Shown here in pieces: positions 10,694 to 55,733 of a DNA stretch of 64,000 nt. The translations under genes and the position numbers were made by a program. The notes beneath the pieces are model-generated. The model was not told where the DNA came from. It saw only the letters and a list, made by a program, of their open reading frames with translations, and made no database searches. The stretch comes from Bacteroidota bacterium (GTDB taxonomy: Bacteria > Bacteroidota > Ignavibacteria > UBA10030 > UBA6906). Position 1 is the stretch's first letter. Each line of letters opens with the position of its first letter. The DNA lies in NCBI GenBank assembly GCA_030835135.1, contig JAUQWO010000070.1:23548-87547 (forward strand), given 5' to 3'.

Positions 10694-12082
10694 TCACTTC
10701 ACCAAAGCCAGCCGGTGGGTCGCCACGGCACCGGCCGACCCGAGCCGACAGATGTAGATACCGCTCGCAAGATTCGTCCCGTCGAAGCGCACGGTGTGCA
10801 CCCCCGCACGGTGGTAGCCGTCGACCGGTGTTGCCACAAGACGGCCAAGGAGATCGAAGACCCGCAGCGTTGCCGGGCCCTCGCCGCGAAGCGTATAGTG
10901 CAGCGTCGTCGACGGGTTGAACGGATTCGGATAGCTTCCGAGATGGATCGCGGTGGGGAGGCTGGCAGATCCTGCGATCGCGACACCGGTCACGAACTTC
11001 TCTTTCAATGCCATGATGCGCGCGTACGATGCGTCGATGCGCGCAGCAGCGATGCTCCCATCCTGCACACGCCGTTCGAGCACATCCACGATCCGCCGGG
11101 CGAGCGAATGCCCCGCACTGTCGAGGTTCGTGGTGTACAGGAGTATATCCACCCCCGCATTCACGGCAAGCACCATCGCCTCATCGAGTCCGTAGTGGGA
11201 CGCGATGGCCTTCATCCCCATCGCATCACTCATCACCACCCCGCCGAACCCGAGCTGGTTCCGGAGCATCCCCGTGATCGTCGCATGCGAGAGCGTCGCA
11301 GGATAGACGGAGTCGATCATGCTGTTGAACAAATGACCCGTCATGATCACATCCGGCTTCCCCTCCGCGATGAGCGTTCTGTACGGATCGAGCTCGGAGG
11401 CACTCCACGTCGTCGTGATGTCTGTGAAGCCGAGATGCGAATCCGCTTGCGCGCTCCCGTGTCCGGGAAAGTGCTTGAGTGCGGTCAGGACGTGCCGCGC
11501 ATGGAACTCATCGATGAACCAGGATGCATGCCGGGCCACAGTGGCGGCATCCGCGGAAAAGCTCCGCTTCAGCGCTCCGATCGCAGGACTCGCCGGATTG
11601 ACATTCACATCGACGACCGGCGCAAGGTTCATCGTCAGCCCGGTCTGGACGAACCAGTCCGCCATCATGGATGCCATGCTGCGTGTGGAGCTTTCCTGGT
11701 TCAGGACCGTACCCAGATCGTAGGCCGTGGAGGTTGCGGCAAAACCGTTGGATGCGCTGAGCCGGGCCACCTTCCCTCCTTCCTGATCGATGGCAAGAAG
11801 GAGCGGGACGTGGGCGAGAGCCTGAAGTTGACCCGTGAAGCGAGCAATGCCCGCCGGACTCGCAAGGTTACCGCTCCAAACGAACATGACCACACCGCCG
11901 ACCTGCCGGTTCGCGAGGTCGTTTTTCAGAGTGTCCATCGAAGGACTCCGCTCTTCCAACGAGTCGCCGGTGACGGTGATCATCACCATCTGACCCAGTT
12001 TTTCCCTCAGCGTGACCCCGGCATCGGCGATCGCAGCGACAGACAGCAAGCAAACAATAAGCCAACAGGCACGACTTCTCAT
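10694..12082 (-). CDS. secreted single-domain GH3 beta-N-acetylhexosaminidase (NagZ-type) with T9SS CTD
   Basis: Signal peptide; IDQEGG, KHFPGHGSAQADSH (NagZ Asp-His dyad), MSDAMGM; C-terminal SYPNPFNPST...GIY CTD. Start reassigned to ATG 12082. Confidence 0.9.
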   Translation of the reverse strand: MRSRACWLIVCLLSVAAIADAGVTLREKLGQMVMITVTGDSLEERSPSMDTLKNDLANRQVGGVVMFVWSGNLASPAGIARFTGQLQALAHVPLLLAIDQEGGKVARLSASNGFAATSTAYDLGTVLNQESSTRSMASMMADWFVQTGLTMNLAPVVDVNVNPASPAIGALKRSFSADAATVARHASWFIDEFHARHVLTALKHFPGHGSAQADSHLGFTDITTTWSASELDPYRTLIAEGKPDVIMTGHLFNSMIDSVYPATLSHATITGMLRNQLGFGGVVMSDAMGMKAIASHYGLDEAMVLAVNAGVDILLYTTNLDSAGHSLARRIVDVLERRVQDGSIAAARIDASYARIMALKEKFVTGVAIAGSASLPTAIHLGSYPNPFNPSTTLHYTLRGEGPATLRVFDLLGRLVATPVDGYHRAGVHTVRFDGTNLASGIYICRLGSAGAVATHRLALVK

Positions 12083-12297
12083 AGAAGAGCATCCTCTGGT
12101 TCTCTGACTCTCGACACCACTCACGATCGCTGTCATGCACCCTATCACACCGCGGCCCACCACGTGTTGTGTTCCCACCCGTGGTCCTGAACGTCTCCGA
12201 GGAGTCACCCTGGGTCAAAAAAGGAAGAAGCCTCCCATCCTTGCGTGCGGAACAGGAGGTATTTTCGCCGTATCGTTTCCCCTGAAGGTCGAAGGTA

Positions 12298-16437: not shown

Positions 16438-18714
16438 TCAAAACATGAGTTGTAGCCCGAGAGAGAATGTCCGCGGCCGGGCCGGACCGTATATGTAGTT
16501 CGAATCCCGGTACGGACCGGTGTCGAAGTCGGCCTGGTACACGTCGAAGACATTCTGGACCGCAGCAGACACCTGCCACCGGCCCGGGATCCCCCCGGCT
16601 GCGAACATGTATGAGACCTTCGCACCGAACTCCAGCATCGGTGGCGTGCGCACGAGGACGTCCGCCGGCACACCGGGCGCCCCGGCCAGATGCGGAACGA
16701 TCATCGGCCCCGTGAACAACCCGTTCAACGACACCGTGAACCGGTCGTCGGGCCGGAGGTCCAGCACCCCGAACCCGTACACATCCGGTGTCCTGAGGAA
16801 CCGCACGCTTCCCGGTACCGTATCGGACCAGCGGACCGACCGATCGTAGACGCTCCGCTGGAGAGTTGCTCCGGCGGTGACCTCGAGGACATCGTCGACA
16901 TTCGCGCGGACCTCCACCGAGGCGCCTGCCACCGTCGCTCTCCCGCCATTCCGCCGGATCAGGATCGCATTCGCGGGATCATCAGGATCCGCCCCGCCAT
17001 CCTCCAGGATGAACGCATCGTTCAGCACGGTGTGAAACCCCTCGAGCGTGAAGCCCCAGATCATATGCGCCGAAGGAAGATTGAAGTCGAGCGATGTACT
17101 CAGGCTGCGGGAACTCTCTTCCCTGAGGGCCGGGTCGATCCGGACCATCGAGATGCCTCCTCCGGCAAAGGCGATGTGAAGGTCGGCGTCGAACGCCTGG
17201 GGGGCACGGAACCCGGTGGAGTACGAACCCCGCCATTGCAGGAAGCGCGTGAGGTTGTACATGATGTTCACCCGTGGATGGACGAGGATCCGGTCCAGAA
17301 GTCCGTGGCGGTCTCCCCGGAGACCGAACAGGATGGTCCAGTGCTCATCCATCTTCCAGTCCGTCTGGAGGAGCATCCCGATCTGCTGCGTCGCCTGCAC
17401 GAGCTCGTGCCGGTATCCCGGGATCCTGTCCGCGATGTCATCATACTGCCCTTCGAGACCCACGGTGATCGTATTCTCTCCCCATCCGAGAAACCCCTGG
17501 TGCGACCTGCTGAATTGTGCGCCGTACACCAACGTGAGGTTCTCCGTTGTCCCGTAGGCATCGGCATGGCCCACGCCCGTATAGTGCTTGCGTCCGGTGT
17601 GGAGTCCCGAGACATAGGCTGAGACAGTGCTCAGCAACGACGGGATCGTGTGCACCAGCGTGATCCCGCCCCCCAGGACAGTGTGGGTCCGCTGTTCTGC
17701 CTGGTCCGCTTTGTGAGGCGGCATGTCGAGAGCGTTCCCGCCCCGGCGCTCTTCCTGCAGACTCTGCGCATCAAGGGTCAGGCGTGTCTGTTCCCCGAGT
17801 TTCAGGAACGAGGTCAACCCGAAGGAGTTGTTGCTGATCTCCGGTGCCTCGGTGAACCCATCCCCGTTCGCATCGAATCCGCCGCGCTTTCTGAACGTGC
17901 CGAAGACGGTCATGCCGTTCCTCTGGTCCGGATCCACCATCGACGTATTGAGCGATAGCGACCTGTCCGGCGTCCCCCCGCCGATCCAGCCATTGTCGAA
18001 GCCGATGACGGACGAGTTCACCCGCGGCTCACGCGTGATGATGTTGATCGTGCCGCCGATCGCACTGGCGCCGTAGAGTGCGGAGGCCCCGCCCCGGATG
18101 ACCTCGATCCGCTCCACCATGCCGGTCGGGATCTGTTCGAGACCGTACAATCCGCTCAGCGCGCTGAAGACCGGCCTGCCGTTGATCAGGACCTGAGAAT
18201 ATGAGCCGCCCAGCCCGTTGAGGCGAACCTGCGAGTAGTTGCATGTCTGGCAATCGATCTCGACCCTGACGCCGCTCTGGTACCCGAGACCGTCCAGGAG
18301 GCTTCTGGCATTCGTCGAGACCAGCGTGCCCGCATCGAGAACACTGACCATGACGGGGACCTCCGTGCGGACCTTCTCTGTCCGCGTCCCCGTCACGACG
18401 ATCGGACCGTATTCGATCGCCTCGGGATCCAGCACGATCTCAATGAACAACGGGTCGGCGCCGACCGTCAGGTCGCGTGCGAAGTTCGCGTAGCCGATGT
18501 ACCCCGCACGGAGTCTCACCGATCCGGATGGGATCCCCTGCAGCATGAACATCCCTGCCGTGTCCGTCACTGTCCCGATGAGCGTCCCTTCCAGATGGAT
18601 ATTTGCCCCGATGATCCGTTCGCCGCTCCGTGCGTCCCGGACCCGTCCGCTCAGGGTCGATGCTTCCAGTGAGACCGCGGAACACACCAGCAAGGCAACT
18701 GCGAGACCACGCAT
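16438..18714 (-). CDS. TonB-dependent outer-membrane receptor (CxxC-plug family), putative metal importer
   Basis: Signal peptide, CarboxypepD-like N-domain, VVTGTRT, plug CQTCNYSQVRLNGL and ERIEVIRGGASALYG, C-terminal YGP..PRTFSLGLQLMF. Start reassigned to ATG 18714 (GGAGG RBS). Confidence 0.92.
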   Translation of the reverse strand: MRGLAVALLVCSAVSLEASTLSGRVRDARSGERIIGANIHLEGTLIGTVTDTAGMFMLQGIPSGSVRLRAGYIGYANFARDLTVGADPLFIEIVLDPEAIEYGPIVVTGTRTEKVRTEVPVMVSVLDAGTLVSTNARSLLDGLGYQSGVRVEIDCQTCNYSQVRLNGLGGSYSQVLINGRPVFSALSGLYGLEQIPTGMVERIEVIRGGASALYGASAIGGTINIITREPRVNSSVIGFDNGWIGGGTPDRSLSLNTSMVDPDQRNGMTVFGTFRKRGGFDANGDGFTEAPEISNNSFGLTSFLKLGEQTRLTLDAQSLQEERRGGNALDMPPHKADQAEQRTHTVLGGGITLVHTIPSLLSTVSAYVSGLHTGRKHYTGVGHADAYGTTENLTLVYGAQFSRSHQGFLGWGENTITVGLEGQYDDIADRIPGYRHELVQATQQIGMLLQTDWKMDEHWTILFGLRGDRHGLLDRILVHPRVNIMYNLTRFLQWRGSYSTGFRAPQAFDADLHIAFAGGGISMVRIDPALREESSRSLSTSLDFNLPSAHMIWGFTLEGFHTVLNDAFILEDGGADPDDPANAILIRRNGGRATVAGASVEVRANVDDVLEVTAGATLQRSVYDRSVRWSDTVPGSVRFLRTPDVYGFGVLDLRPDDRFTVSLNGLFTGPMIVPHLAGAPGVPADVLVRTPPMLEFGAKVSYMFAAGGIPGRWQVSAAVQNVFDVYQADFDTGPYRDSNYIYGPARPRTFSLGLQLMF

Positions 18715-18771
18715 ACGCCTCCTCCTCTTCTTCTTCCCGTGCAGGATGAACCTTTGCTTCTCTCTCCGTGT

Positions 18772-18793
18772 TAACGTAGCATAGGCTACATTT
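18772..18793. promoter_or_regulatory. MntR box
   Basis: TAACGTAGC-ATAG-GCTACATTT matches the 22-bp E. coli MntR palindrome AAACATAGC-N4-GCTATGTTT in geometry and in most bases; lies between the divergent receptor and mntR genes. Confidence 0.8.
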
Positions 18794-18833
18794 TGTTCCC
18801 ACGGTCGTGCATCCATACATGATGGAGGTCGTC

Positions 18834-19295
18834 ATGCCATCGCGGAAGAAACCGAGGCCCACGGGAGAGGCCCGGAGGAAACAGCGGGATCCCCGCGCGC
18901 TGAGCCTGGTGCAGACGCGCCGCCAGCACGCGCGGGAGATCGCAGAGGATTATGCAGAGGCAATCGCGGAATTGATCGCTGACCGGGGCGAGGCGCGGGT
19001 CGTGGACCTGGCCGCCCGCCTCGGTGTGACCCACGTAACGGTGCACCGGACCGTTGCACGGCTCCAGAAGGCCGGGTTCGTCTCGTCGCGTCCGTATCGG
19101 GCGATCGACCTGACACGGCGCGGCCGGGCCCTGGCCACGACATCGAGGAGCCGCCATGAGACGGTGCTCCAGTTCCTCCTCTCCCTCGGCATTCCAGAGC
19201 ACGTGGCGAACACCGACGCCGAAGGCATCGAACACCACGTCAGCCCGGAAACCCTGGCGGCGTTCGCATCCGCCCTGAAGAAGAGCGGCCTCTGA
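18834..19295 (+). CDS. mntR: manganese-binding transcriptional regulator MntR (DtxR family)
   Basis: EDYAEAI, ARVVDLAARLGV HTH, RHE, DAEGIEHH metal ligands; GGAGG RBS; start ATG 18834. Confidence 0.9.
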   Translation: MPSRKKPRPTGEARRKQRDPRALSLVQTRRQHAREIAEDYAEAIAELIADRGEARVVDLAARLGVTHVTVHRTVARLQKAGFVSSRPYRAIDLTRRGRALATTSRSRHETVLQFLLSLGIPEHVANTDAEGIEHHVSPETLAAFASALKKSGL

Positions 19296-19433
19296 TCCCG
19301 GCCGGCGCACTTGAGCCGCGGGAGTGCGTCGCCAGCCCGCCGTGCCCGTGATGCGAAGGGCCTGCCCATGCGCGGGTTGCCCTTTGCCGCCATGTTCGCT
19401 ATACTATGGCGGGAACCACCAGGTGAGGAGCGC

Positions 19434-19886
19434 GTGACACAGCAGGTCCGGGAAGCAAAGATCCAGCAGTTCATCGAACAGTGCAAGGCCGCGGGCATGA
19501 AGGTGACGCCCCAGCGCCTCGTGATCTTCCGTACATTGATGCAGGACGTCTCGCATCCGAGTCCGGACCGGCTGTACCGCAGGATCAAGCGTTCCCACCC
19601 GACCATCTCGCACGCCACCGTCTACACCACACTCGAAGCGTTCGCGCGCCACGGCATCATTGCCCGGCTCACGCCGCTGCATGAGACGGTCCGGTTCGAT
19701 CCGATCACCCGCCCCCACCATCATATCGTGTGCGTCAGCTGCAAGAAGGTCACGAACCTGCCGGAAGAAGAGATCCCGCCCATCGCCATCCCGGCCCACG
19801 TCAGCAGGGAGAATACCGTTCTGGGCCAGAGCGTGTATATCAACGTCCTCTGTCCGTCCTGCCGGAAACGGACACCGCGAGGGTAA
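19434..19886 (+). CDS. perR: Fur-family regulator, PerR-like
   Basis: HPS, ATVY, RFD, HHHIVCVSC, CPSC; GTG start after GAGGAG; directly upstream of katG. Confidence 0.8.
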   Translation: MTQQVREAKIQQFIEQCKAAGMKVTPQRLVIFRTLMQDVSHPSPDRLYRRIKRSHPTISHATVYTTLEAFARHGIIARLTPLHETVRFDPITRPHHHIVCVSCKKVTNLPEEEIPPIAIPAHVSRENTVLGQSVYINVLCPSCRKRTPRG

Positions 19887-19993: not shown

Positions 19994-22213
<2,220 letters not shown>

Positions 22214-38852: not shown

Positions 38853-41102
38853 GTGAAGCATCTCCTTCTCATCGGGGGCTTCCTCTTCGTGGTCGCCATG
38901 TATCCCGGGCCTCCTGCCCACTCCCAGGCGGCATATCCGGAGCCCGGCATCACGGCCGATATCCGTGGCATAGTCTCCGACAGCTCGAATGGCGAGCGCC
39001 TCATCGGCGTGAACGTCATCCTCAAGGGGACGAAGCGCGGCGCGACCACGAACACCAGCGGCTTCTACACCATCACGAACGTCCCGGCAGGGACGCATCA
39101 ACTAATCGTCAGCGCCGTGGGGTATGAACCCCGGGCGATCCTCTTCCTCGTGTCCCGGAAGGAACAGATCACGCTGAATGTCCGCCTCGTGCCCCAGCCG
39201 GTGCAGACGGGCGAGGTCCTGGTCCAGTCGGCCGGCATCTCCACCCTCACCGAACGCAGCGCCAGCGTCCATGTGATGACCCCCCAGGAGATCCGCGCCC
39301 TGCCGGCGGTCGCGCAAAGCGACCTTCTCCGGTCATTGCAGCTGCTCCCCGGCATCACATCCACGTCGGATGTGAGCGCGAAGTTTTTCGTGCGCGGGGG
39401 CGCGAGCGACCAGAACCAGATCCTCCTCGACGGCATGAAGATCCACAACCCGTTCCATGCCTTCGGGTTGTTCAGCGTGCTCGATCCCGACCTCGTGCGC
39501 TCTGCCGAGGTGTACACCGGCGCGTTCCCCGCTGGCTACGGCGGCCGCCTCTCCTCGGTCGTGAACGTCACCACGAAGGAAGGCAACCTGTCGAAGGTCT
39601 CCGGCAACGCGACCATCAACTTCCTCTCCGGCAAGCTCGAACTGGACGGGCCGTTTGCGGATGACAATTCATGGCTCGTGAGCGGACGGACGTCGCTCTT
39701 CAGCAAGACCGTGAACCGCATGATCCCGAACGCAGCGCCCCTGTCCTTCTATGACCTCTTCGTGAAGGGCACGATGGGAACGAGCACCGGCCGCGTCGGG
39801 TTCCGCGCGTTCGTGAGCAGCGACGATGTGACCCCCGTGCAGGTCGATCAGCCCGACCATTCCTGGCGCAACGCAGCAGCCTCGATCGTGTTGTCGGGCG
39901 TGGCGGATGACCGCCTCTATTTTGATGCCACGGTAAATTATGGCTACGCGCTGAACCGCCGCTCGCCCAAACCCGGATCCACGGTCCGGCCTGCGATGTC
40001 CCGCCTGGAAGAATTCGGCGTCCGCGTGGAGATGACCAGCTTCACCGAGAACCAGAACACGTTCTTCGAAGGATTTGAGATCGCCTTCCCGATGATCCAG
40101 GATTCGATCTATGGGTACGGGGTCTTTCCGAAAGAATACAAGGACAGTCGCGTGAACTGGTCGGCATGGACCCGCTACGTCGGGGCCTGGGGCGATCTGG
40201 GGTTCGATCTCGGGATCCACGCTGACGCAATGCTCCTCTTCGAAGGCTATGCGCCCTATCAGGGCATCCAACCCAGGCTCACGCTCTCCTATGATCTCGG
40301 CAGAAGCTGGTCCGTCAAGGCATCGTACGGAACATTCACGCAGGACATGATCGCGATCAGCAATGAAGACGATCTGATCACGCTTTTCGATGCATGGATC
40401 TTCCTCCCTGACGACCTGCGGCCCGAAGTAGCCCGGCATTACGTGACGGGGATCGAGGGAAACGTCATCCCGGGACTGGCCGTCAGCCTCCAGGGATACA
40501 TCAAAGATTACAGTTCGCTGACATTGTACAATCCTGCGAAGGTCTACCCCTCCGATCCGGATTATCTGAATGGCGATGGTGATGCCCGGGGCATCGAGGC
40601 ACTGATCCGGTTCGCCTCGCCGATCGTTGACATCTACACGTCGTATGCGTTCTCCGAGGTCACGGTGAATGCGGGCACGAGGTCCTATGCTCCACGGTAC
40701 GATCGCCGGCATACGATCAAGGCGGTCTCCTCGTTCCACCTGTTCGACGGATTCGATCTCACGTTCCGGTGGGATTTTGGTACCGGCTATCCGTTCACCC
40801 AGAACGCGGGATACTACGACCGCCTGAGTCTCTCGGACATCGAGACGAACCCCTTCCCTTCCGGCACCGGCACGCCGTCCCGCACCCTCGGCGCCAAGAA
40901 TGCCGCCCGCCTCCCCGCGTACTATCGCTGGGATGCCGGGATCACGTACCGAGTCGCATTCGAGGGGCTGCGAGGCAGCGCGGGGATCAGTCTGATCAAT
41001 CTCTCCGATCACAAGAATATCCTCTACTATGACCGTGCCACGGGCAAGACCGATTACATGATCCCGTTCTTCCCCACTGCACAGGTGTCACTCGACTTCT
41101 GA
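38853..41102 (+). CDS. TonB-dependent receptor with CarboxypepD-like N-domain
   Basis: GERLIGVNV, VRGGASDQNQILLDG, GAFPAGYGGRLSSV plug motifs, RLPAYYRWD, terminal F. Confidence 0.9.
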   Translation: MKHLLLIGGFLFVVAMYPGPPAHSQAAYPEPGITADIRGIVSDSSNGERLIGVNVILKGTKRGATTNTSGFYTITNVPAGTHQLIVSAVGYEPRAILFLVSRKEQITLNVRLVPQPVQTGEVLVQSAGISTLTERSASVHVMTPQEIRALPAVAQSDLLRSLQLLPGITSTSDVSAKFFVRGGASDQNQILLDGMKIHNPFHAFGLFSVLDPDLVRSAEVYTGAFPAGYGGRLSSVVNVTTKEGNLSKVSGNATINFLSGKLELDGPFADDNSWLVSGRTSLFSKTVNRMIPNAAPLSFYDLFVKGTMGTSTGRVGFRAFVSSDDVTPVQVDQPDHSWRNAAASIVLSGVADDRLYFDATVNYGYALNRRSPKPGSTVRPAMSRLEEFGVRVEMTSFTENQNTFFEGFEIAFPMIQDSIYGYGVFPKEYKDSRVNWSAWTRYVGAWGDLGFDLGIHADAMLLFEGYAPYQGIQPRLTLSYDLGRSWSVKASYGTFTQDMIAISNEDDLITLFDAWIFLPDDLRPEVARHYVTGIEGNVIPGLAVSLQGYIKDYSSLTLYNPAKVYPSDPDYLNGDGDARGIEALIRFASPIVDIYTSYAFSEVTVNAGTRSYAPRYDRRHTIKAVSSFHLFDGFDLTFRWDFGTGYPFTQNAGYYDRLSLSDIETNPFPSGTGTPSRTLGAKNAARLPAYYRWDAGITYRVAFEGLRGSAGISLINLSDHKNILYYDRATGKTDYMIPFFPTAQVSLDF

Positions 41103-41105
41103 TCC

Positions 41106-42032
41106 ATGAAGCCCGGTCTCCATATCGCCCTTGTTGGTGTTCTTGGCATGATGCTCATGGCCTGCAACCAGCCCTTCGAACCGGATGGGCCGGCGAGCAG
41201 CAAACTCGTTGTCTACAGCGTCCTGAATGGAGCATCATCGACACAGTTCGTCCGCCTTGCCGCAACATATGCAACGGCCCCCTCCCCGTCGCTGCGTCAG
41301 GCATCTGTGTCCATGACCTCGAACGGGACGACCGTGCAGTTCAGGGACACGACCATTGCAACCGTCGATGCGGCTGGGGCACCGGTGTCGATCCCGGTGT
41401 TCGTCGCGACGCAGATGCCCATCATCGGCGGCAGCTCATACACGCTTCACGTCACCGATCCCTCCGGTCTTCGGGCTGATGTCCGGACCACTGCTCTGGT
41501 GCCGCCGGACTTCGCGATCACCAATGCAAAGGTCTTGAGCCGCAGCGTACGGTCGCAGATCATCCTGAACACCACCTTCGGGTCGTTCGATGGCGCGTTC
41601 GTGATGCACTTCTATCTGGATTTCTATGCGTTCGTAAATGGAGGGTGGGAGTTACAGCAGGAGGAAGTCCCCTTGCGCAGATATGAAGAGACGGATGGAA
41701 GCATGGTGAAGGTCTACCCGGCACTCGATCTGGTCCGGACCCATGCGGCATCCCGGGCAATTGTCCCCATCCGGTACGATACTCTTCAATACGATCAGAC
41801 CCGGTCCGATATCATCACGCGTTTCCCCGCCGCACCGGTGGTCTGGCTGCGTGCACGATTTGTGCTCACGCAGATCGATAATGTGCTGTACAACTACTAC
41901 TACGTGAACAACGGGCCGCGCGACAACTCCACGATCCGCATGGACCAACCCGATTACACGAACATCCCGCAAGGGCTCGGGGTCTTCGGCAGCTCGGTGA
42001 CGGTCACCAGGAACTACCCGCTCACAAATTAG
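41106..42032 (+). CDS. DUF4249-like lipoprotein
   Basis: Lipobox LMAC, LVVYSVL, C-terminal YTNI.QGLGVFGS; 3 bp after the receptor gene. Confidence 0.8.
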   Translation: MKPGLHIALVGVLGMMLMACNQPFEPDGPASSKLVVYSVLNGASSTQFVRLAATYATAPSPSLRQASVSMTSNGTTVQFRDTTIATVDAAGAPVSIPVFVATQMPIIGGSSYTLHVTDPSGLRADVRTTALVPPDFAITNAKVLSRSVRSQIILNTTFGSFDGAFVMHFYLDFYAFVNGGWELQQEEVPLRRYEETDGSMVKVYPALDLVRTHAASRAIVPIRYDTLQYDQTRSDIITRFPAAPVVWLRARFVLTQIDNVLYNYYYVNNGPRDNSTIRMDQPDYTNIPQGLGVFGSSVTVTRNYPLTN

Positions 42033-44386: not shown

Positions 44387-47074
44387 ATGAAGTACCTGCT
44401 GTTCGCCGTATTGAATCTGTACTCGGCCCACCTCGTCGCTGGCGACGGGCGCGTTCTCTTCGTCATTGGATCGGACACGGGACTCTGGACGGGCCTCAAC
44501 GTCGCGCACTACCGCTGCACGCTCTCCGGGGCACTATATACCGACCCCGCGATGAATGCCTCTCGTGTCATGGATCCAGCATTCCGTTCCGCACTCACCG
44601 ACCGCCACGGGACTCCGATGAAGCTCACGTGGTGGATGATGGCGGGCAACATGTTCCGGATGTCCGTGAACACGGACATCCCCGTGCCCAGCACCATGCC
44701 GGTCTATCTGATGAAGCGGTTCCATGGTGACCGGATCCGGCAGTGGGGCGATGAACTCACGTTCCACTATCATACCTGGGTCTGGAGCGACCGCAACGGC
44801 GATGGGATCTGGTACTGGAATCAGGGGATCTCGTATGATGAGTTCGCCCCCGACTTCGACCAGACGCTCGCTGAGATGCTCCTCGAGGAGGAGGTGTTCC
44901 CCGTCTCGTTCCGCAGCGGATGGCATGCCATGGACAATGCCTGGCAACAACGGATCGACCGACTGCTTCCCTTCAGCATGCACAATGACTGGCCGGGGAT
45001 ACACGCGGACGCCACCGAACCGGTCGACAACGTGTACGACTGGTCACGTGCTCCATCAGCGTCCGTCCCCTTCCACCCATCCCTGTCCGACTACCAGGTC
45101 CCCGGCAATGCCCGGGGCTGGAATCTCCGATCCAGCTACATCACGAAAGGCGACTCGGCGTTCCTCGCGAAGCTCTTCGCACAGGCAGCGGGCGGCGTCG
45201 ATCAGGTCGTCTGCCTCTGGGCACACCTGCCGGAGGCGGATTTCGCGGAGAACCTGCAGCGACTGAATGCTGCCGTGCACGCGGTCGCCGCCCGGTATCC
45301 CTCCATCGACTATCGGTACTGCACCGCTGTCGAAGCCATGCAGGCATGGCTCGGTGGCGCGGACACCACGGCCCCGCAACTCACCATCACCGAATCGGAG
45401 GCGTCCACCGGGGGAGTTCTCTGGACCATCCGATCCGACGAGCCGATCTTCCAACCGGAGCCCTTTGTCGCCGTCAAGGACCGATACGAGCGATACCGGA
45501 TACTGCCCCTCGAACGTACGGGTCCCTCCGCATGGCGGACCACGGCAGGGGTTGCCCGCGCCGACCTTGCCCGCCTGGGCGTGGCCGCCACCGATACATC
45601 GGGGAACCTGAGCACCAGGTCCATCCGATACCTTCCGGACGATGTCATCATAGACAATGCAGCCACCGGGTATGCCGAATCCCGCGGCTCCTGGAGCACG
45701 GTGAAGGGAAGCGGGTTCGATGCATCGTATCGCACATGCACCGTCCCGGCAGGAGATTCCGCAATGGCACGATGGACCTTCACGCTCCCGGAGGCTGGCA
45801 CATTCAATCTCTCCCTCCGGGTTCCGGCGACCGCCGCACCCTGTACGAAGGGGCAGGTCCGATGGGGCGAGACCGGCAGTGAGAGCGTGACATCCTTCGC
45901 CACCCCGCTCCCCTCAGAGACATGGTCCCATGTGGGCACACTCCGGTCGTCAGGTCCCCTGACCGGACATGTCACTCTCACGTATCTTGGATCGCCGGGC
46001 GCAACAACATGCGGTGCGGATGCCGTGAGGATCACCGCCCTCGTGCGCGACGTGTGGATCGAAGCACCGGCATCCGTGGACGCTGGTGCTCTCATCGTTG
46101 ATGAACCCTCGAACGGGTCGCTCACTCTGCGCAACTCGGGAGTGACAGCCGCACATATTCTCTCGGCAGTATCGCTTCGCGGAAGTACATCGATGATCGA
46201 CGCACTTCCGGTGCCTGTTCCGCCGATGGGTGAGCGGGTCCTGCATTTCCGCTGCGTCCCCCCGGCCGTCGGCAGCTATGCCGATACGCTCATCCTCACA
46301 ACGGACGACCCCTACCATGCAGAGGTCCGGACCCCGATCCACGGTGTGGTCCGTGAATACTTTGTACTCCTTGATGATCGTGATCCCGACCGCTACAGTG
46401 AAACAGGCACCTGGGCATTCAGTTCGGCCGGCGGGCTCAACGCAACAAGCCGCTATGCGTACCCCGCAGCGGGAGTGTCTGCGCAATTCCGCGTGCGACT
46501 GCTGAAACCTGGCTCCTACGACGTCGGGATGATCGTTCCGACGACCGTGAACGCCACCGTGCGTGCGCGCTACGACCTGACGTGTGGCTCCACACGGCTC
46601 GATTCTGTGTTCATCGATCAGAACGCCGGGAGCGGCGGCTGGGTCCGCCTCTGGACCCGGGATCTGCCGGTGGACACGACACTCGTGGTGCGCCTCACCG
46701 ATGCGATGTCACCGGTGATCGCCGGCAGGGTCCTGCGCACAGATGCCGTCCAGTTCCAGTGGACCGGCACGGGCACATCGGTCCGGGGCAGCGATTCGCG
46801 GGAGGTGCCAGTAGTGAATGGGATGGAACAGAATTACCCCAATCCATTCAACCCATCCACCCGCATCGCCATCTCGCTCGCCGCCCGGCAACGCGTGATC
46901 GTCACCGTATGCGATGTGCTGGGCAGGAATGTGGCCCTGCTCCTGGACGAGGTGCGTGATGCGGGAACCTTCACCCTCGCGTTCAACGGGGCCGGGCTTT
47001 CGAGCGGCATCTATGTCTGCAGGATGCGCATCGGCACCGCGACATATTCCCGGAAAATGCTCCTGGTGAAGTGA
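44387..47074 (+). CDS. T9SS-secreted protein: divergent NodB/CE4-like domain, two golvesin/Xly-like beta-domains, CTD
   Basis: GSDT, ELTFHYH, FRSGWH, LWAH motifs; IIDN...Y.E.G.W and LDD.D..YSETGTW domains; EQNYPNPFNPST CTD. Start ATG 44387. Confidence 0.7.
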   Translation: MKYLLFAVLNLYSAHLVAGDGRVLFVIGSDTGLWTGLNVAHYRCTLSGALYTDPAMNASRVMDPAFRSALTDRHGTPMKLTWWMMAGNMFRMSVNTDIPVPSTMPVYLMKRFHGDRIRQWGDELTFHYHTWVWSDRNGDGIWYWNQGISYDEFAPDFDQTLAEMLLEEEVFPVSFRSGWHAMDNAWQQRIDRLLPFSMHNDWPGIHADATEPVDNVYDWSRAPSASVPFHPSLSDYQVPGNARGWNLRSSYITKGDSAFLAKLFAQAAGGVDQVVCLWAHLPEADFAENLQRLNAAVHAVAARYPSIDYRYCTAVEAMQAWLGGADTTAPQLTITESEASTGGVLWTIRSDEPIFQPEPFVAVKDRYERYRILPLERTGPSAWRTTAGVARADLARLGVAATDTSGNLSTRSIRYLPDDVIIDNAATGYAESRGSWSTVKGSGFDASYRTCTVPAGDSAMARWTFTLPEAGTFNLSLRVPATAAPCTKGQVRWGETGSESVTSFATPLPSETWSHVGTLRSSGPLTGHVTLTYLGSPGATTCGADAVRITALVRDVWIEAPASVDAGALIVDEPSNGSLTLRNSGVTAAHILSAVSLRGSTSMIDALPVPVPPMGERVLHFRCVPPAVGSYADTLILTTDDPYHAEVRTPIHGVVREYFVLLDDRDPDRYSETGTWAFSSAGGLNATSRYAYPAAGVSAQFRVRLLKPGSYDVGMIVPTTVNATVRARYDLTCGSTRLDSVFIDQNAGSGGWVRLWTRDLPVDTTLVVRLTDAMSPVIAGRVLRTDAVQFQWTGTGTSVRGSDSREVPVVNGMEQNYPNPFNPSTRIAISLAARQRVIVTVCDVLGRNVALLLDEVRDAGTFTLAFNGAGLSSGIYVCRMRIGTATYSRKMLLVK

Positions 47075-47216
47075 ATGTCCACCGCATGGTCCGTTGTCCC
47101 GGCACATCACCATGCGGTGCGTGACACGAAGCATGCCGGCGATGGCTGATGTTGTCCAGAGCGGGGCTACGCCACGCACGAGGACTCAGCGTTTCTTCCA
47201 GAGACAGGAGCATCGT

Positions 47217-48362
47217 ATGGGGTCACACAGGATCAGCGCTCTCCTTGCAGTGCTGCTCTGCCAGTCGCAGGCAACCACACAGACCCTTGACCTTCCGCCC
47301 CGCGCCGTGGACGCACTCTCCCGCGATGCGATCATCACATTGATCACCCCCCTCCCACGCGACGCACGAGAGGACACGCTGTTCCGGCTTGTCACGTCGG
47401 GCAACATCCCGGCATTCCTGCGAACGCTCGTCCCCATCACCGCCGCGGCCATGGTCAATGGTGTGGAACGCAGTCTGACATACTACGTCACGCCCGAGTA
47501 CCTGGCGGTCGGACCGGATGACCGTTCGTTCCTCATCCCGATGACCCCACTTCTGGCGCAACGCATCGCCGACGCACTCCACTGCACGCTCCCCACGCGC
47601 AAGATGGTGAACGATATCTATCGTGCTGCCCCGTTGAAGCTCGCCCCTTCACCGATCCCTCCCAGCGCTGCAATGATCACGGTACCGGTATTCGCCCAGC
47701 ACGACTCCATCGTGTGGGCCCAGAGGCAACCCGTTCTCGGCTCCTATCCTCATGGGACCTTGACGGGTGGGACGAAAAAGGACGTGGTGATCTCCAACAG
47801 GATCACGACCGATCTCAAGACAGGGGTGCCGAAGCCCGTGGTGATCTACGGATGGCATCAACTGAATGGAAGCGCGATCCAACCACTCTACAACGGTCAC
47901 GGAGAAACGTACGCGGATTACAGTCACGGGATACGGCTCGTTCACACTGCGGTGCTGCTGGATGGGGCTCCGACGACAGTGGGTGCGGTCCTGCAGGACA
48001 ACTTCTTGTCCACCCTACTGAGTGACGAAGGTGCGATCGCCCGGCCGCGATATGGAGACGCGCCGGCGGGTATCGGCACAGACCCCGATACCGGTGACCG
48101 CGGTTCGCTGATCGAAAGGGTCTATCCGAACCCATTCAACGCGTCAACCGAGATCCGCTACCGGCTCGCCTCCCAGGATATGGTCACGCTGAAGGTGTAC
48201 GACATGCTCGGGCGCGTGGCGGCGACACTTGTTGACGCAGCAGTGGAACCCGGAAACCACGAAGTGACCTTCGACGGGTCGGGGCTTGCAAGCGGTGTCT
48301 ATATCGTGCGCGTCAGCACAGGAAGGTCTGTCGAGAGCGGGAAGGTCATCCTCATGCGGTGA
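47217..48362 (+). CDS. T9SS-secreted protein with uncharacterised conserved domain
   Basis: CAGGAG RBS, signal peptide; motifs LPTRKMVNDIY, KKDVV, IYGWH...IQP, H..YADYSHG.RLV; VYPNPFNAST CTD. Confidence 0.78.
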   Translation: MGSHRISALLAVLLCQSQATTQTLDLPPRAVDALSRDAIITLITPLPRDAREDTLFRLVTSGNIPAFLRTLVPITAAAMVNGVERSLTYYVTPEYLAVGPDDRSFLIPMTPLLAQRIADALHCTLPTRKMVNDIYRAAPLKLAPSPIPPSAAMITVPVFAQHDSIVWAQRQPVLGSYPHGTLTGGTKKDVVISNRITTDLKTGVPKPVVIYGWHQLNGSAIQPLYNGHGETYADYSHGIRLVHTAVLLDGAPTTVGAVLQDNFLSTLLSDEGAIARPRYGDAPAGIGTDPDTGDRGSLIERVYPNPFNASTEIRYRLASQDMVTLKVYDMLGRVAATLVDAAVEPGNHEVTFDGSGLASGVYIVRVSTGRSVESGKVILMR

Positions 48363-48463: not shown

Positions 48464-51013
48464 TCATCGCGAGCGATCCTGCGGATGCACCGGGTCGGGT
48501 TCGATCCAGGGGAGGAGGATCTCGATGATCCGTTTCGAGAATGCTCCGCGGGGATGGTTCACGCGCATCGAATTGAGGACCACCGAGAGGCTGCTCGCGA
48601 CCATCGCACCCGCGGCCACCAGGGGGTTCATCAGCCCGGAGACTGCGAGGGCGATCCCGATCGTATTGTACAGGAATGCCCAGGCAAGGTTTTGTTTCAT
48701 GATCCGGGTGCCCCGGCGGGCGATCTCGACCGCCTCCGGGATCAGCGTCAGGTCGTCGCGTAGGAGCGTGACCGGCGCCGCATGGATCGCCATCTCCGTC
48801 CCTCCGCCCATGGCGATACCAACGTCCGCCTGAGCCAGAGCCGGCGCATCGTTCACCCCATCGCCCACCATCACCACCCTCTTCCCCTGCTGCTGCAGAT
48901 GCGAGATCATTGCGATCTTCCCCGCCGGCAGAGCGCCCGCCGCGAACTCCCCGATACCCGCCTGTCCCGCGATCGCAGCCGTGGTGGCCTGCATGTCGCC
49001 CGAAAGCAGTTGCACCTCCACCCCGAGGGCCCCGAGTCGTTCCACCGCGGGCCGCGCGCTCGGTTTGAGAGAATCGCCCAGCACGAATGCAACAGGTGAC
49101 CCTCCAGGAGCGATCGCACCGTACACGACCGTCTTTCCTGACGCGGCGGCACGGACAGCCGCCTCTTCGGTCGCCGGCGCGGGACGGATCCCACTGCTTT
49201 CCAGGAATGCTCGTGAGCCAAGAATGATGTTGTTCCCCTCGACCGTCCCACGGATCCCCTGTCCATCAACGATCGTCACATCGGTCGCGGAGGCAAGCGT
49301 GAGCCGGTGCTTGCGCGCCACCCTGATGATCGCCTGCGCGACGGGATGACTCGAGGCCTGCTCGAGGGATGCCGCAAGACGAAGGAGGTCGCCGGTTTCC
49401 GGCGTCACACCATGGATCTCGTCGCAGTCAAAGTTCCCCGCCGTGAGCGTCCCGGTCTTGTCGAACACCGCCGCAGACGCTGATCCGAGGACCTCCAGAA
49501 CCATCCCGTCGCGGACGAGGATACCGCGGCGTGCAGCGTGGCCGATGCCCGCGGCGATCGCCAGAGGCGTTGCCATGCCCAGGACGCACGGGCAGGCGAT
49601 AAGGAGAACCGTGATCGCACGAAGGATGGATGCTTCCATGCCCGCACCGAGAGCGAACATCACGAGACCCGTGATCACCGACACGACGAGGACGCCGGGA
49701 ATGAACACGCGCGACACCCTGTCCACCATCCGTTCGAGGTCCGACTTGCTGGCCAGGGCGCCCTCGACCATGCGGATGATCGACGAGAGGATGGTGTCCT
49801 TTCCGCACGCATCGACACGGACCTCCATGATGCCGTTGACGTTCATGGAAGAAGCCAGCACCTTCGCTCCCTCGCACTTCTTCACGAGACGGGATTCACC
49901 GGTGAGCAACGATTCATCCACGACGCCACCTCCGACCACCACGGTACCGTCCGCAGGGATCTTCTCACCCGATCGCACGACGAAGATCTCCCCGGGCTGG
50001 AGCTTTTCGGTGGAGATCAGCCGTTCTCCCTCCGGGGCTTTCACGCGCACCTTCTTCGGCATCATGGTATACAGCCTGTGCACACCTTCCGACGCCCGGT
50101 GTTTCGCGCTCACCTCGATCAGTTTTCCGACCAGGAGAAGGGCCACCAGCCCGCCAGACGTGTCGAAGTAGAAGTTCCCGCCGCCGGTCAGCAGTTGGTG
50201 TACGCTGAAGAAGAATGCCGAGAATATCCCGATCGAGAAAAGGAGTTCCATCGTGGGGACGCCGCCCCGGAGGCTGCGGAAGGCCTTGCGGTGGATGGGC
50301 ATGCCACACCAGAAGACCGACGGAAGCGCGAAACCGAACAGGATCCACGGGAACATCGCCGTGATCGCGGGAGGGAGGTCCTGGAAGTACCCTACGTACA
50401 GCGTGTAGCTGAAGAACATCAGGTTGTTCATCAGGAAAAGGGCGATGCCCATCCTGAGGAGGAGCGAGCGCCGCTCGGCGGACCGCTCACCGGGGTCAGC
50501 ATCACGTTCCGTCGCCGCGTAGCCGAGATCAGCGATCCTCTGGCGGATGTGCTCCGCGGAGACCTGTGCCGGCCGGAAGACGACCTTCGCGGTGTCGGAT
50601 GCATACAACACGTTTGCCCGCACCACACCCGGTTCCGCCCCGATCACCTTCTCGATGAGCCAGGAACAGGACGAACACCACATGCCATCCACGTGGAGCA
50701 CGAGTTCGTCCCCGTCCTCCGGCATGTGCTCCTCCGCGGGCGCCACAACCTCATCCGTGACGGGCTTGCCGATGATGCCAAGACGCAGACTGGTCTGATA
50801 GAGGTCGGACGACCGGAAGTCACCCCCGAGCAGCCCGCTTTCGGCCAGGATGAGGAACACCTGACGGCATCCGGCACAGCAGAAGCGATAGTCGTTGCCA
50901 CGCCACTCTGCGTCGTGCGCATGCCGCGACAACGGCAGCGCACAGAGGTCGCATGCGGTGCCTGTCTCAGATCGGACAGTCGGGGCAACCGGGGAGAGGG
51001 ACGTGGTGTTCAT
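48464..51013 (-). CDS. ccoI: heavy-metal P1B-type ATPase (CcoI/FixI-like Cu transporter)
   Basis: N-terminal CDLC and FCCAGC, HMA GMWCSSC, TGES, CPC, DKTGT, GDGVND; at the end of the cbb3 operon. Confidence 0.9.
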   Translation of the reverse strand: MNTTSLSPVAPTVRSETGTACDLCALPLSRHAHDAEWRGNDYRFCCAGCRQVFLILAESGLLGGDFRSSDLYQTSLRLGIIGKPVTDEVVAPAEEHMPEDGDELVLHVDGMWCSSCSWLIEKVIGAEPGVVRANVLYASDTAKVVFRPAQVSAEHIRQRIADLGYAATERDADPGERSAERRSLLLRMGIALFLMNNLMFFSYTLYVGYFQDLPPAITAMFPWILFGFALPSVFWCGMPIHRKAFRSLRGGVPTMELLFSIGIFSAFFFSVHQLLTGGGNFYFDTSGGLVALLLVGKLIEVSAKHRASEGVHRLYTMMPKKVRVKAPEGERLISTEKLQPGEIFVVRSGEKIPADGTVVVGGGVVDESLLTGESRLVKKCEGAKVLASSMNVNGIMEVRVDACGKDTILSSIIRMVEGALASKSDLERMVDRVSRVFIPGVLVVSVITGLVMFALGAGMEASILRAITVLLIACPCVLGMATPLAIAAGIGHAARRGILVRDGMVLEVLGSASAAVFDKTGTLTAGNFDCDEIHGVTPETGDLLRLAASLEQASSHPVAQAIIRVARKHRLTLASATDVTIVDGQGIRGTVEGNNIILGSRAFLESSGIRPAPATEEAAVRAAASGKTVVYGAIAPGGSPVAFVLGDSLKPSARPAVERLGALGVEVQLLSGDMQATTAAIAGQAGIGEFAAGALPAGKIAMISHLQQQGKRVVMVGDGVNDAPALAQADVGIAMGGGTEMAIHAAPVTLLRDDLTLIPEAVEIARRGTRIMKQNLAWAFLYNTIGIALAVSGLMNPLVAAGAMVASSLSVVLNSMRVNHPRGAFSKRIIEILLPWIEPDPVHPQDRSR

Positions 51014-51025
51014 GCCTGTGGGCGC

Positions 51026-51151
51026 CTACTTTGCGAGGATCTTTCCATCCTCGTACTTCACCTCGTGGATGGGCGTGCGGACCGCGATCACTGCCATGAG
51101 CACGAGGATCGCGATGAAGACCGCGAGCGTGGCATAGATGCTTTTCTTCAT
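51026..51151 (-). CDS. 41-aa single-TM small protein (not in ORF track)
   Basis: MKKSIYATLAVFIAILVLMAVIAVRTPIHEVKYEDGKILAK*; ATG overlaps the ccoG stop (ATGA) and the stop lies 12 nt before the ATPase start. Confidence 0.7.
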   Translation of the reverse strand: MKKSIYATLAVFIAILVLMAVIAVRTPIHEVKYEDGKILAK

Positions 51152-52488
51152 TGCAGGGCCTTTGTCGATGAACCGCTTCCGGATATATCACTCTCCGGCA
51201 TGAAGAACACGATATCCGTCGTCGCATGGATCTCCGGATGCTCCGTACTTGTCGCCGTCAGCTGCAGACGGTTCGGACCCGGCCGCAATCGATGCACGGG
51301 GAGGTACAAACGCATCGTCGTTGCCCGGACCTCGCGCGATGACAGCGGGAACGGATTCCTGTCCAACGCTACCGCGCAGTCATGCGAGGGTGCTGCATCG
51401 GCGCCGCTGCAGGTAAGCAGGACGACGTCGTCGCTGAGACTGCGGTTACTGATCTTGATCGCATATTCATTGTACACGCGTCCATCATCCGTCACATGAT
51501 ACAGCGTCGACCGGTCACCGCTTGCAGTGAGAGAGAGCGGCATGCGGCCCTGAATGACGAACACCAGGACCAGTGCATACACCACCGTCAGGGCCAGGAC
51601 GCCCCAGCGCTTCGCATCGACGAAGCCAAGCTTCTCATACCACCGCATGCGGGGCCCGCCTTTCTCACCCCACGAGAACGCAATGAGGGTCGGTAGCGGG
51701 GTCTTGAGCCGGGACAGGATCGCCGTACAGGAGTCCACGCAGTCGCCGCAATGGGTGCATTCCGTCTGGTAGGGCGACTGGCGGATGTCGATGCCCATCG
51801 GACAATCGCGCACACACGCTTTGCATTCGATGCATTCGCCGTGCCGCTCCGTCGCATAACGGACGATCTGTGTCTTGCTGTCGGTGAAGACCGCCTGCAA
51901 CATGCCATAGGGGCAGGTCTTTGTGCAGAACTTCTCACGCCAGAACATGACATCCACCCAGACCAGGAGGGCGATGCCAATGATGATGCCAACGGTCACG
52001 GACCCGAGGCTCAGTGCGGCGATCTCCCCGAGCATCCGGTAGGGATCCACGAAATATGCAACGAGATTGAATCCCACGAACACCGACAGGGCGAACATGG
52101 CAGTGCCCAGCAGCACGTGGTGCGCGAGCCACCGCACGATGCCCTGCCCCGTTTTCCGGCCGGCACCCGGCACCCGGAGCCAGCGCCGGCTCTTGCCCTC
52201 GAGCCAGTAGTACAGCTCGTCGAGCACGGTCTGCGGACACATCCATCCGCACCATACGCGTCCATAAACCATCGCAAAGATCACGATGATCCAGAGAACG
52301 AGCATGATAACGAGGAACAGCAGATAGAACTCATCCACCCAGAGCACCGAGGTAAGGAAATAGAACCGCAGTGTGGGGATATCCAGGCGGAGGATGTTGA
52401 GGAACGGCAGGATGACGATCAGGAGTGTACTGAGCGTCTGGACGACCCGACGCTTGGCGCGGTACGTCGCAGGACTGGTGCGTGACAT
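51148..52488 (-). CDS. ccoG: cbb3 oxidase accessory ferredoxin-like protein CcoG/FixG
   Basis: CGWMCPQT, CTKTCPYG, CIECKAC...CP, CTHCGDC...C, C-terminal Ig-like domain. Confidence 0.9.
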   Translation of the reverse strand: MSRTSPATYRAKRRVVQTLSTLLIVILPFLNILRLDIPTLRFYFLTSVLWVDEFYLLFLVIMLVLWIIVIFAMVYGRVWCGWMCPQTVLDELYYWLEGKSRRWLRVPGAGRKTGQGIVRWLAHHVLLGTAMFALSVFVGFNLVAYFVDPYRMLGEIAALSLGSVTVGIIIGIALLVWVDVMFWREKFCTKTCPYGMLQAVFTDSKTQIVRYATERHGECIECKACVRDCPMGIDIRQSPYQTECTHCGDCVDSCTAILSRLKTPLPTLIAFSWGEKGGPRMRWYEKLGFVDAKRWGVLALTVVYALVLVFVIQGRMPLSLTASGDRSTLYHVTDDGRVYNEYAIKISNRSLSDDVVLLTCSGADAAPSHDCAVALDRNPFPLSSREVRATTMRLYLPVHRLRPGPNRLQLTATSTEHPEIHATTDIVFFMPESDISGSGSSTKALQ

Positions 52489-52563
52489 GGTATTCGGTCT
52501 CGGCTATGGTACAGCGTTGTCCGTCCGGCCCGCAACCGGGGCCGGACGGACAATGACACGGGA

Positions 52564-52755
52564 CTACTTTGCCTGCATCTGCTTCTGCAGCAGTTCCTGC
52601 TGCAGATCGTAGCTGGACTTCCAGTCCCAGTACGTGAAGAGATAGTAGATGCACACCGCGGTGATGACAACATACGCGAGCTTCAGGAACCACCCCGGTC
52701 CCTTCTTCTCATCCTGGAGGATGACCTCGTCATGCACATCGGTTGTCGCGCTCAT
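52564..52755 (-). CDS. heme-less CcoP N-terminal-like membrane peptide
   Basis: 63 aa; acidic N-terminus then PGWF..AYVVITAVCIYY TM helix; ATGA overlap with ccoO; no CxxCH. Confidence 0.7.
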   Translation of the reverse strand: MSATTDVHDEVILQDEKKGPGWFLKLAYVVITAVCIYYLFTYWDWKSSYDLQQELLQKQMQAK

Positions 52756-53399: not shown

Positions 53400-53413
53400 G
53401 GTCTTGTCTCCTC

Positions 53414-54757: not shown

Positions 54758-54837
54758 TCTACTGCTCCTTTGATTGATGGTGGCTCACCCGCCCACGATC
54801 CCTCTGCACATGGTTCGTACTGCTTACTGATCCACTC

Positions 54838-55638: not shown

Positions 55639-55733
55639 CGGTTCGCCTTTGTGAATGCTGTTCTTCTGAAGACCACGAATGACCCTCTTCGCTGCCCGGT
55701 GTGCCTCGCCTGACATGATCCGTGCACGCAGGG

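Follow-up and report, generated by a model that had tools for sequence, protein, structure and literature searches.

The locus described here lies in a stretch of 64,000 nucleotides (nt) from contig JAUQWO010000070.1 of a Bacteroidota bacterium (assembly GCA_030835135.1), which as a whole is called the window and from whose first letter all positions are counted. It consists of a TonB-dependent receptor gene (16438..18714, minus strand, 758 amino acids (aa), assigned from Pfam matches and homologue length) and a divergent mntR gene (18834..19295, plus strand, 153 aa) for an E. coli-type manganese (Mn)-sensing repressor of the DtxR family. In the list of open reading frames (ORFs) the full open frame of the receptor spans 16438..18816 on the minus strand, and translation almost certainly starts at the ATG at 18714, judging from the sequence, because this start is followed by the signal peptide MRGLAVALLVCSAVSLEAS, has the putative ribosome-binding site GGAGGAGG just upstream, and yields the length of 758 aa also found in homologues. 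The ATG at 18834 is most likely the start of mntR, because GGAGG lies 6 nt upstream and the start is kept in relatives. With these two starts, the 119-bp gap between the divergent genes (18715..18833) that the original prediction, a reading of the DNA letters, had given is exact. This control region holds a predicted MntR box (18772..18793; TAACGTAGC-ATAG-GCTACATTT), 58 nt from the ATG of the receptor gene and 41 nt from that of mntR. The same prediction placed a CQTC motif in the plug of the receptor and proposed energised Mn uptake across the outer membrane under MntR control; the motif (C155-Q-T-C158, codons 18241..18252 on the minus strand, checked in translation) indeed falls within the Pfam Plug domain, as residues 155-158 of a domain spanning 118-222.

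The regulator was assigned with the E. coli-type MntR equivalog model NF008273 of NCBIfam, for which it scores 176.9 bits against a cutoff of 153, and its best match in the PDB is E. coli MntR itself (2H09, 6.9e-32). In a gap-free alignment to B. subtilis MntR (1ON1), residues D39, E42, H108, E130, E133, and H134 stand at the positions of D8, E11, H77, E99, E102, and H103. Because all six ligands of the binuclear site are kept, it can safely be inferred from the alignment that the protein senses Mn. Its closest named homologues in a protein search were verrucomicrobial MntR proteins (65-67% identity).

The palindrome in the gap, described beforehand as a near-consensus 22-bp MntR site, agrees at 14 of 18 arm positions with AAACATAGC-AAAG-GCTATGTTT, a palindrome that was read directly from the upstream region of mntH in E. 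coli K-12 and that we take to be the published E. coli MntR box. Two of its differences from the E. coli box are symmetric, so that the palindrome is preserved. No other site in the window matches at 12 or more of the 18 positions, and the core GTAGC-N4-GCTAC occurs there a single time. Matches of at least 14/18 were found in 6% of 200 first-order Markov sequences of 64 kb, an expectation of about 0.06 per 64 kb, and the probability that such a match falls by chance within exactly these 119 bp is of the order of 1e-4. These figures speak against reading the palindrome as fortuitous or as a terminator-like hairpin, with the receptor being an ordinary iron-siderophore receptor, an explanation that we regard as extremely improbable. 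A terminator scan does flag the box as a stem of 5 bp with a run of T after it (the inverted-repeat scan is insensitive to 5-bp arms at its seed length), but the flag is irrelevant because both flanking genes point away from the box, so that there is nothing to terminate.

Conservation of the site argues in the same direction. A 19-nt core, TGTAGCCTATGCTACGTTA, is invariant in the relatives L086, L087, and L088, whereas its flanks have diverged and the whole alignment shows 66% column identity; L086 and L087 are identical across the region, so the three relatives amount to two independent sequences. The receptors of these relatives are 88% (L088) and 79% (L086/L087) identical to that of the window, and L086/L087 keep the divergent mntR, the comparison of L086-L088 being limited to where the contig reaches mntR. 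One lineage of close relatives carries a 90-nt insertion between box and gene. A site of the same type, TGTAGY-N4-RCTACA, was found in another phylum, in verrucomicrobial loci beside mntR genes orthologous to that of the window, in the forms TGTAGT-ATAG-ACTACA and TGTAGT-ATGT-ACTACA and facing genes for outer-membrane proteins. The string TGTAGT-N4-ACTACA occurs four times in 212 loci, three of them beside a verrucomicrobial mntR, two of which (L210 and L211) are one locus copied. Taken from the equivalog score, the six ligands, the footprint kept in the 79-88% identical relatives, and the verrucomicrobial sites, control of the receptor by MntR appears very probable, and this part of the original prediction is well borne out.

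The verrucomicrobial sites lie at 6863-6878 in L210 (and also in L211) and at 6933-6948 in L212. The former faces a divergent, unrelated TonB receptor of 784 aa that lacks CxxC; CsoR-like, P-type ATPase, ZIP, and Fur genes come next, and a TonB-ExbBD cluster is close by. The latter faces an outer-membrane protein of the Phenol_MetA_deg family. MntR-controlled outer-membrane proteins thus seem to have arisen more than once. The receptors beside verrucomicrobial mntR genes were considered as a link to the CQNC-plug receptors described below and rejected, as they belong to a different, CxxC-less family; they are informative for the operator only.

The receptor has the layout of its class, with a signal peptide (residues 1-19), a CarboxypepD_reg-like N-terminal domain (residues 20-107; CarbopepD_reg_2, 1.7e-15), the plug (Pfam Plug, 8.4e-22), and a barrel from about residue 234 to 758 (TonB_dep_Rec_b-barrel, 1.4e-22). 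Plug and barrel both score above the Pfam cutoff, and the barrel has the size of the 22-stranded TonB receptor class. A putative TonB box, IVVTGTR (residues 105-111), pairs in a profile alignment to CirA with the segment ETMVVTA, the TonB box of CirA. None of the substrate-specific NCBIfam models (siderophore, haem, B12) reaches its cutoff for this receptor; the best match is TonB-hemin, with 86.6 bits against a cutoff of 316.85, and the matches cover mainly the plug. An AlphaFold2 model (predicted local distance difference test 82.8, predicted template modelling score 0.76) retrieved PirA, Cir, and BtuB with Foldseek at E about 1e-36, that is, generic TonB receptors only, and no close relative was found among solved structures by Foldseek and PDB profile searches. 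An iron-siderophore receptor might be read from the nearest solved structures being catecholate receptors and BtuB, and from the name "outer membrane receptor for ferrienterochelin and colicins" that the Joint Genome Institute gives to homologues. However, the structural matches are only 13-18% identical, the name is a generic COG one, and the scores with specific siderophore-receptor models all stay far below the cutoffs.

In the model, CQTC forms the loop of a plug hairpin between strands 149-154 and 160-165, and aligned to CirA it appears as a 2-residue insertion directly before the "IRG" plug motif. The motif is invariant in the 120 best-scoring homologues, and so are many other polar residues, among them E340, H377, H513, H675, and nine arginines. 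Given the usual strand order of TonB receptors, the model puts E340, H377, and H513 at extracellular strand ends or in extracellular loops. The predicted extracellular-side position of CQTC, E340, H377, H513, and H675 fits a candidate ligand pocket. Apart from these residues, the receptor carries an invariant DANGDGFTE loop (DxNxDGxxE; 17848-17874, residues 281-289), predicted to be extracellular and resembling Ca2+-type sites with oxygen ligands; for a hard cation such as Mn2+ this loop would be a better match than the two cysteines.

Homologues of the receptor are numerous. A protein search gave more than 5,000 matches at E up to 1e-10, the 120 best of which are full-length, 42-88% identical, and almost all from Bacteroidota where the source is named. 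A scan of species-representative genomes confirmed at least 589 matching stretches, and many more were seen in metagenomes, including human-gut samples. Receptors with CQ[TN]C occur in all parts of Bacteroidota, Bacteroidales of the human gut among them, and extend to Gemmatimonadota-like and other lineages. Gene neighbourhoods were counted in 80 genome loci collected with the family alignment, and operators in the 77 usable ones. A DtxR-family regulator of about 219 aa lies directly beside the receptor gene in 16 of the 80 loci, mostly divergent, and a ZIP transporter adjoins it in 11. Five of the 16 adjacent regulators were scanned, and all five scored best with MntR models, above DtxR or Zur, while remaining below the equivalog cutoffs. 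These regulators are of a longer DtxR/FeoA type and were found by clustering the neighbouring ORFs; tblastn of the window MntR against the 80 loci gave a single weak match.

The intergenic regions of the relatives share a 5-4-5 palindrome, TTAGn-N4-nCTAA. Sites of the form TTAG-N6-CTAA were found within 200 nt upstream of the receptor gene in 24 of the 77 loci (26 sites, mostly 45-100 nt before the start codon), at a density of 1.67 per kb as compared with 0.019 per kb outside these upstream regions, and spacers of 4, 5, or 8 nt between TTAG and CTAA, used as an internal control, gave zero upstream sites. As 15 of these 24 loci have no regulator nearby, the site indicates regulon membership rather than mere neighbourhood. 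Relatives at 53-60% identity have operons of the receptor, a DsbH-like thioredoxin-fold protein, and an MntR-like regulator, with sites of the TTAAG-N4-CTTAA type that are near-perfect in L214. A gene for a periplasmic thioredoxin-fold protein lies 3' of the receptor gene in L002 (8289-8756), L070 (6584-7078), L082/L083 (8270-9365 in L082), L214 (7283-8399), L179, L185, and L190; the encoded proteins bear CNWC, CTWC, or CAPC (the last in L070) and have weak DsbH/DsbD-like matches, and in L082 and L214 the MntR-like regulator comes next in the same operon. The window lineage differs in having the short E. coli-type MntR and the GTAGC-N4-GCTAC site. Since the regulator type differs and the target is the same, the receptor is tied to Mn-regulatory input more strongly than it would be by synteny.

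Some loci of the family depart from this pattern. In Prolixibacteraceae (L013-L020, L039, and others) the 5-4-5 site is replaced by a 7-3-7 palindrome, TTTAGAAnnnTTCTAAA (TTAG-N7-CTAA), about 60-120 nt upstream of the receptor gene, with no regulator encoded nearby. Two annotated plasmid loci have uninformative neighbours.

A related system has recently been described in Stenotrophomonas maltophilia Sm18 (V8P27_002357/002358; PMC13217887, 2026; bioRxiv 10.1101/2025.10.14.682371), where a TonB receptor with a CQNC plug is encoded together with a periplasmic thioredoxin-fold protein bearing CAPC, the two genes being co-transcribed. An MntR box lies 75 bp upstream of that receptor gene, the locus is derepressed in an mntR mutant and induced by combined Mn and iron (Fe) limitation, some MntR-independent control is retained, and C63, C66, E247, and H446 were proposed as ligands from AlphaFold3 modelling (PMC13217887). 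The receptors of S. maltophilia and of the window have in common a CQxC in the middle of the plug, an MntR box tens of bp upstream, and an adjacent mntR, and the spacing from Cys to Glu is 184 residues in the former (C63/C66/E247) and 185 in the latter (C155/C158/E340). They differ in the third motif residue, which is T in the window and N in S. maltophilia, and in the additional N-terminal CarboxypepD_reg-like domain of the window receptor, which is typical of Bacteroidota. Unlike in S. maltophilia, neither a thioredoxin-fold gene nor mntH adjoins the window receptor, and perR-katG follow mntR instead. The thioredoxin-fold partner in L070 shares CAPC with that of S. maltophilia, and a protein search with it returned Flavobacteriia only, with no bridge to the Stenotrophomonas partner.

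To see how the two plug motifs relate, metagenome contigs were scanned for DNA encoding CQNC...Q.R.NG, which returned at least 120 loci. All 120 loci listed are full-length homologues of the window receptor (30-46% identity, E down to 1e-176) with the motif E-x-[ND]-CQNC-G-F-x-Q-[VL]-R-x-N-G, and a few of them have DtxR and ZIP neighbours, downstream thioredoxin-fold genes, or TTAG-N6-CTAA sites. Judged from these alignments and neighbours, CQTC and CQNC receptors are one family with the same partners. When the palindromes upstream of the receptor genes in the CQNC metagenome loci were enumerated, no single operator prevailed, and tblastn against plasmids for proteobacterial CQNC receptors retrieved Bacteroidota only. 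The distribution of CQNC was called "restricted" in the S. maltophilia study, to Lysobacterales, Sphingomonadales, and Opitutales (PMC13217887), whereas the CQ[TN]C family is large in Bacteroidota. Three metagenome contigs (L105, L132, and L150) carry two tandem CQNC-type paralogues about 2.9 kb apart on the same strand, one with ETNCQNC and one with ESNCQNC.

Taken together, the evidence leans somewhat towards the locus being a manganese-starvation uptake module. With Mn2+ plentiful, the MntR dimer would load Mn at its binuclear site, bind the single palindrome at 18772-18793, and keep the promoter of the divergent receptor gene, and probably that of mntR, repressed. With Mn low, the receptor would be made and inserted into the outer membrane, where it would use the energy of TonB/ExbBD, encoded elsewhere, to bring Mn into the periplasm, either as Mn2+ or in a small complex, capturing it in an extracellular-side pocket presumably formed by the C155-Q-T-C158 hairpin with E340, H377, H513, and H675. 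An inner-membrane importer encoded elsewhere would then take over, possibly of the ZIP type, as a ZIP protein is found in many relatives. Energised Mn uptake by the receptor is a reasonable inference, which gains weight because MntR/DtxR-type regulators, ZIP transporters, and conserved operators are associated with such receptors across the family, and we incline modestly to Mn in some form as the physiological cargo. The regulatory half of the proposed uptake is thus strongly supported, and the transport half is plausible.

Several observations weigh against Mn uptake. The window holds no gene for TonB/ExbBD, an inner-membrane Mn importer, or a thioredoxin-fold partner. As for the importer, whose absence had been noted beforehand, tblastn found no NRAMP or ZIP gene in the window (E > 1), and Pfam scans found no domains of Mn ABC, NRAMP, or ZIP transporters among 36 window ORFs. 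Of these, 33 belong to the 40 largest that do not overlap and reach at least 110 aa, and the others are mntR, the PerR-like gene, and an alternative frame. A search for Rfam families, including the Mn riboswitch, found none in the window either. No sigma-70 consensus promoter was detected by the scan of the 119-bp gap. Most CQNC-type metagenome loci lack a recognisable operator. In L081, whose receptor is 75% identical to that of the window, mntR is absent from the surrounding 6 kb and no MntR box can be recognised in front of the receptor gene, which shows that loss or relocation of the regulatory link is possible even among fairly close relatives. The likeness between the window and S. maltophilia receptors consists of close parallels and was compared by motif position and Cys-Glu spacing. 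The chemistry of the site raises a further objection: Mn2+ is a hard cation and rarely has Cys ligands, the predicted Cys2-Glu-His site looks more like one for Zn, Fe(II), Co, or Cd, and the two cysteines of the CxxC may do no more than form a disulfide. The adjacent ZIP that was scanned is ZupT-like below the cutoff (136 vs 252 bits) and not metal-specific. In addition, the authors of the S. maltophilia study call their receptor a candidate Mn importer and leave its function undetermined (PMC13217887).

Such chemistry would be expected if the receptor, under the same MntR control, carried one or more other divalent metals (Zn2+, Fe2+, Co2+, Cd2+), as a compensating or shared route under Mn shortage, which we consider unlikely. 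A CxxC with Glu and His is typical of soft or borderline metals, the neighbouring ZIP proteins in relatives are ZupT-like and so of a broad-specificity family, and the verrucomicrobial receptor next to mntR has the metal-related neighbours named above. Full induction in S. maltophilia, moreover, needs Fe as well as Mn limitation, and the locus retains some control that is independent of MntR (PMC13217887). The regulatory evidence points the other way: the sole palindrome in the 119-bp gap is of the MntR type, with no Zur- or Fur-type box there, the window MntR keeps the Mn-specific ligand set, and all five scanned adjacent regulators (of 16) favour MntR models over DtxR or Zur.

Mn might also enter as a chelate (a metallophore or another small Mn complex), or oxidised Mn might be reduced via the CxxC, instead of the free ion being transported. 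Apart from those for Zn and Cu, the well-studied TonB receptors for metals all take chelates, the nine invariant arginines could bind an anionic ligand, and the periplasmic thioredoxin-fold partner in relatives hints at redox chemistry of the CxxC, which may be a redox element served by this partner. Nevertheless, neither in the window nor in any of the 80+ loci examined is the receptor gene flanked by genes for metallophore biosynthesis or export. The pocket residues are highly conserved from Flavobacteriia to the window lineage, as for a universal simple ligand, and a large part of the invariant Arg and Glu residues may serve in the salt bridges that plug and barrel usually form. We regard this form of uptake as quite improbable. 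A broader version of Mn uptake can be put forward only tentatively: CQ[TN]C receptors could be a large and ancient family and the main energised outer-membrane gate for Mn, binding the metal directly at a redox-switchable CxxC plug hairpin that is kept reduced by the periplasmic thioredoxin-fold protein, under interchangeable MntR/DtxR regulators acting via related 5-4-5 operators.

Among known systems, the regulatory side of the proposed module has its closest counterpart in the MntR-mntH unit of E. coli, in which an uptake gene is reportedly repressed in a Mn-dependent manner (work credited to Patzer & Hantke 2001 and Waters et al. 2011). Both have the same regulator subtype, a 9-4-9 palindrome with a TAGC-N4-GCTA core, and the same repression logic; the half-sites read ACGTAGC / ATGTAGC in the window and ACATAGC in E. 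coli, and the target is an outer-membrane TonB receptor in the former and an inner-membrane NRAMP importer in the latter. Direct binding of a metal ion through His, Cys, or Met is thought to occur in the TonB receptors ZnuD (Zn, Neisseria) and OprC/NosA (Cu, Pseudomonas), which are regulated by Zur or Cu-responsive systems and of which OprC has a CxxxM-HxM site. The pocket proposed here is like theirs in that the metal would be bound via side chains rather than as a chelate, whereas motifs and regulation differ; ZnuD and OprC/NosA are absent both from the sequence matches that were listed at E up to 1e-10 and from the top 50 listed by Foldseek. As described in papers that cite the original work, MnoT of Burkholderia thailandensis is a TonB-dependent Mn transporter acting under Mn limitation and oxidative stress (Si et al. 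2017, cited in PMC13217887 and PMC8602904). It resembles the window receptor as a TonB-dependent outer-membrane protein proposed for Mn acquisition when Mn is limited. Compared by description, regulation and family differ, and MnoT works with TseM, a Mn-binding protein secreted by a type VI secretion system (T6SS), while the 36 window ORFs that were scanned include neither a T6SS gene nor one resembling TseM.

To our knowledge, the passage of Mn across the Gram-negative outer membrane is largely unsettled, with experimental support only for MnoP, a porin-like channel, and the T6SS-linked MnoT. The original prediction had called this type of uptake poorly described, which holds insofar as it is barely characterised, but the idea of an MntR-repressed receptor with a CQxC plug as a candidate Mn importer has already been published (PMC13217887), with MnoT preceding it, and the window receptor is a further case. 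It was met independently, in a phylum far from that of S. maltophilia, and its predicted MntR operator is clean and conserved. What is new is that the family is far larger than reported and that members in different phyla are again linked to Mn-type regulators. Receptors of this type are by no means rare, and time after time they are associated with such regulators, with ZIP transporters, and with thioredoxin-fold partners. If Mn is bound directly at the CxxC hairpin, as in the tentative broader version above, the CQ[TN]C gate would be a new type of TonB transport site, with either thiolate-liganded free-ion Mn or reductive capture of oxidised Mn. Cultured isolates are among the carriers, the named ones in our loci being Sphingobacterium, Pedobacter, Pontibacter, Tenacibaculum, and Parabacteroides, which makes the question of Mn as cargo directly testable, and the answer bears on Mn-dependent defence against oxidative stress and on competition for Mn in gut and ocean.

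Downstream of mntR, on the same strand, lie a gene for a PerR-like regulator of the Fur family (19434-19886, plus strand; Pfam FUR, 5.9e-23), which among NCBIfam models is most like those for PerR, below their cutoff, and a catalase-peroxidase gene, katG (20021-22213, plus strand; NF011635, 1343 bits). A promoter scan placed a sigma-70-like promoter before these two genes (19377-19405). The receptor P0004, which is 81% identical to that of the window, lies on a contig with the same order, receptor<>mntR-fur-katG. Together, mntR, the PerR-like gene, and katG form a small Mn and peroxide-stress island, and the position of perR-katG next to mntR fits a role of Mn in peroxide defence.

On the 3' side of the receptor gene, Pfam matches and the ORF list show a convergent, polysaccharide-lyase-like gene. 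The wider surroundings in the window comprise polysaccharide-degrading enzymes, cargo proteins of the type IX secretion system (T9SS), a second TonB receptor, and a cbb3 oxidase cluster. The sorting domains of the T9SS cargo, together with the receptor being of a Bacteroidota type, assign the organism to the FCB group. The second TonB receptor (38853-42032) has a CarboxypepD_reg domain, is unrelated to the CQTC family, and is followed by a DUF4249 protein. The cbb3-type cytochrome oxidase cluster (48464-55716) contains CcoN-, CcoO-, and CcoP-like genes and a FixG/CcoG-like ferredoxin, as well as a heavy-metal P-type ATPase bearing an HMA domain, probably the copper pump CcoI/FixI. T9SS C-terminal sorting domains were found in the proteins encoded at 10694-12208, 44387-47074, and 47112-48362.

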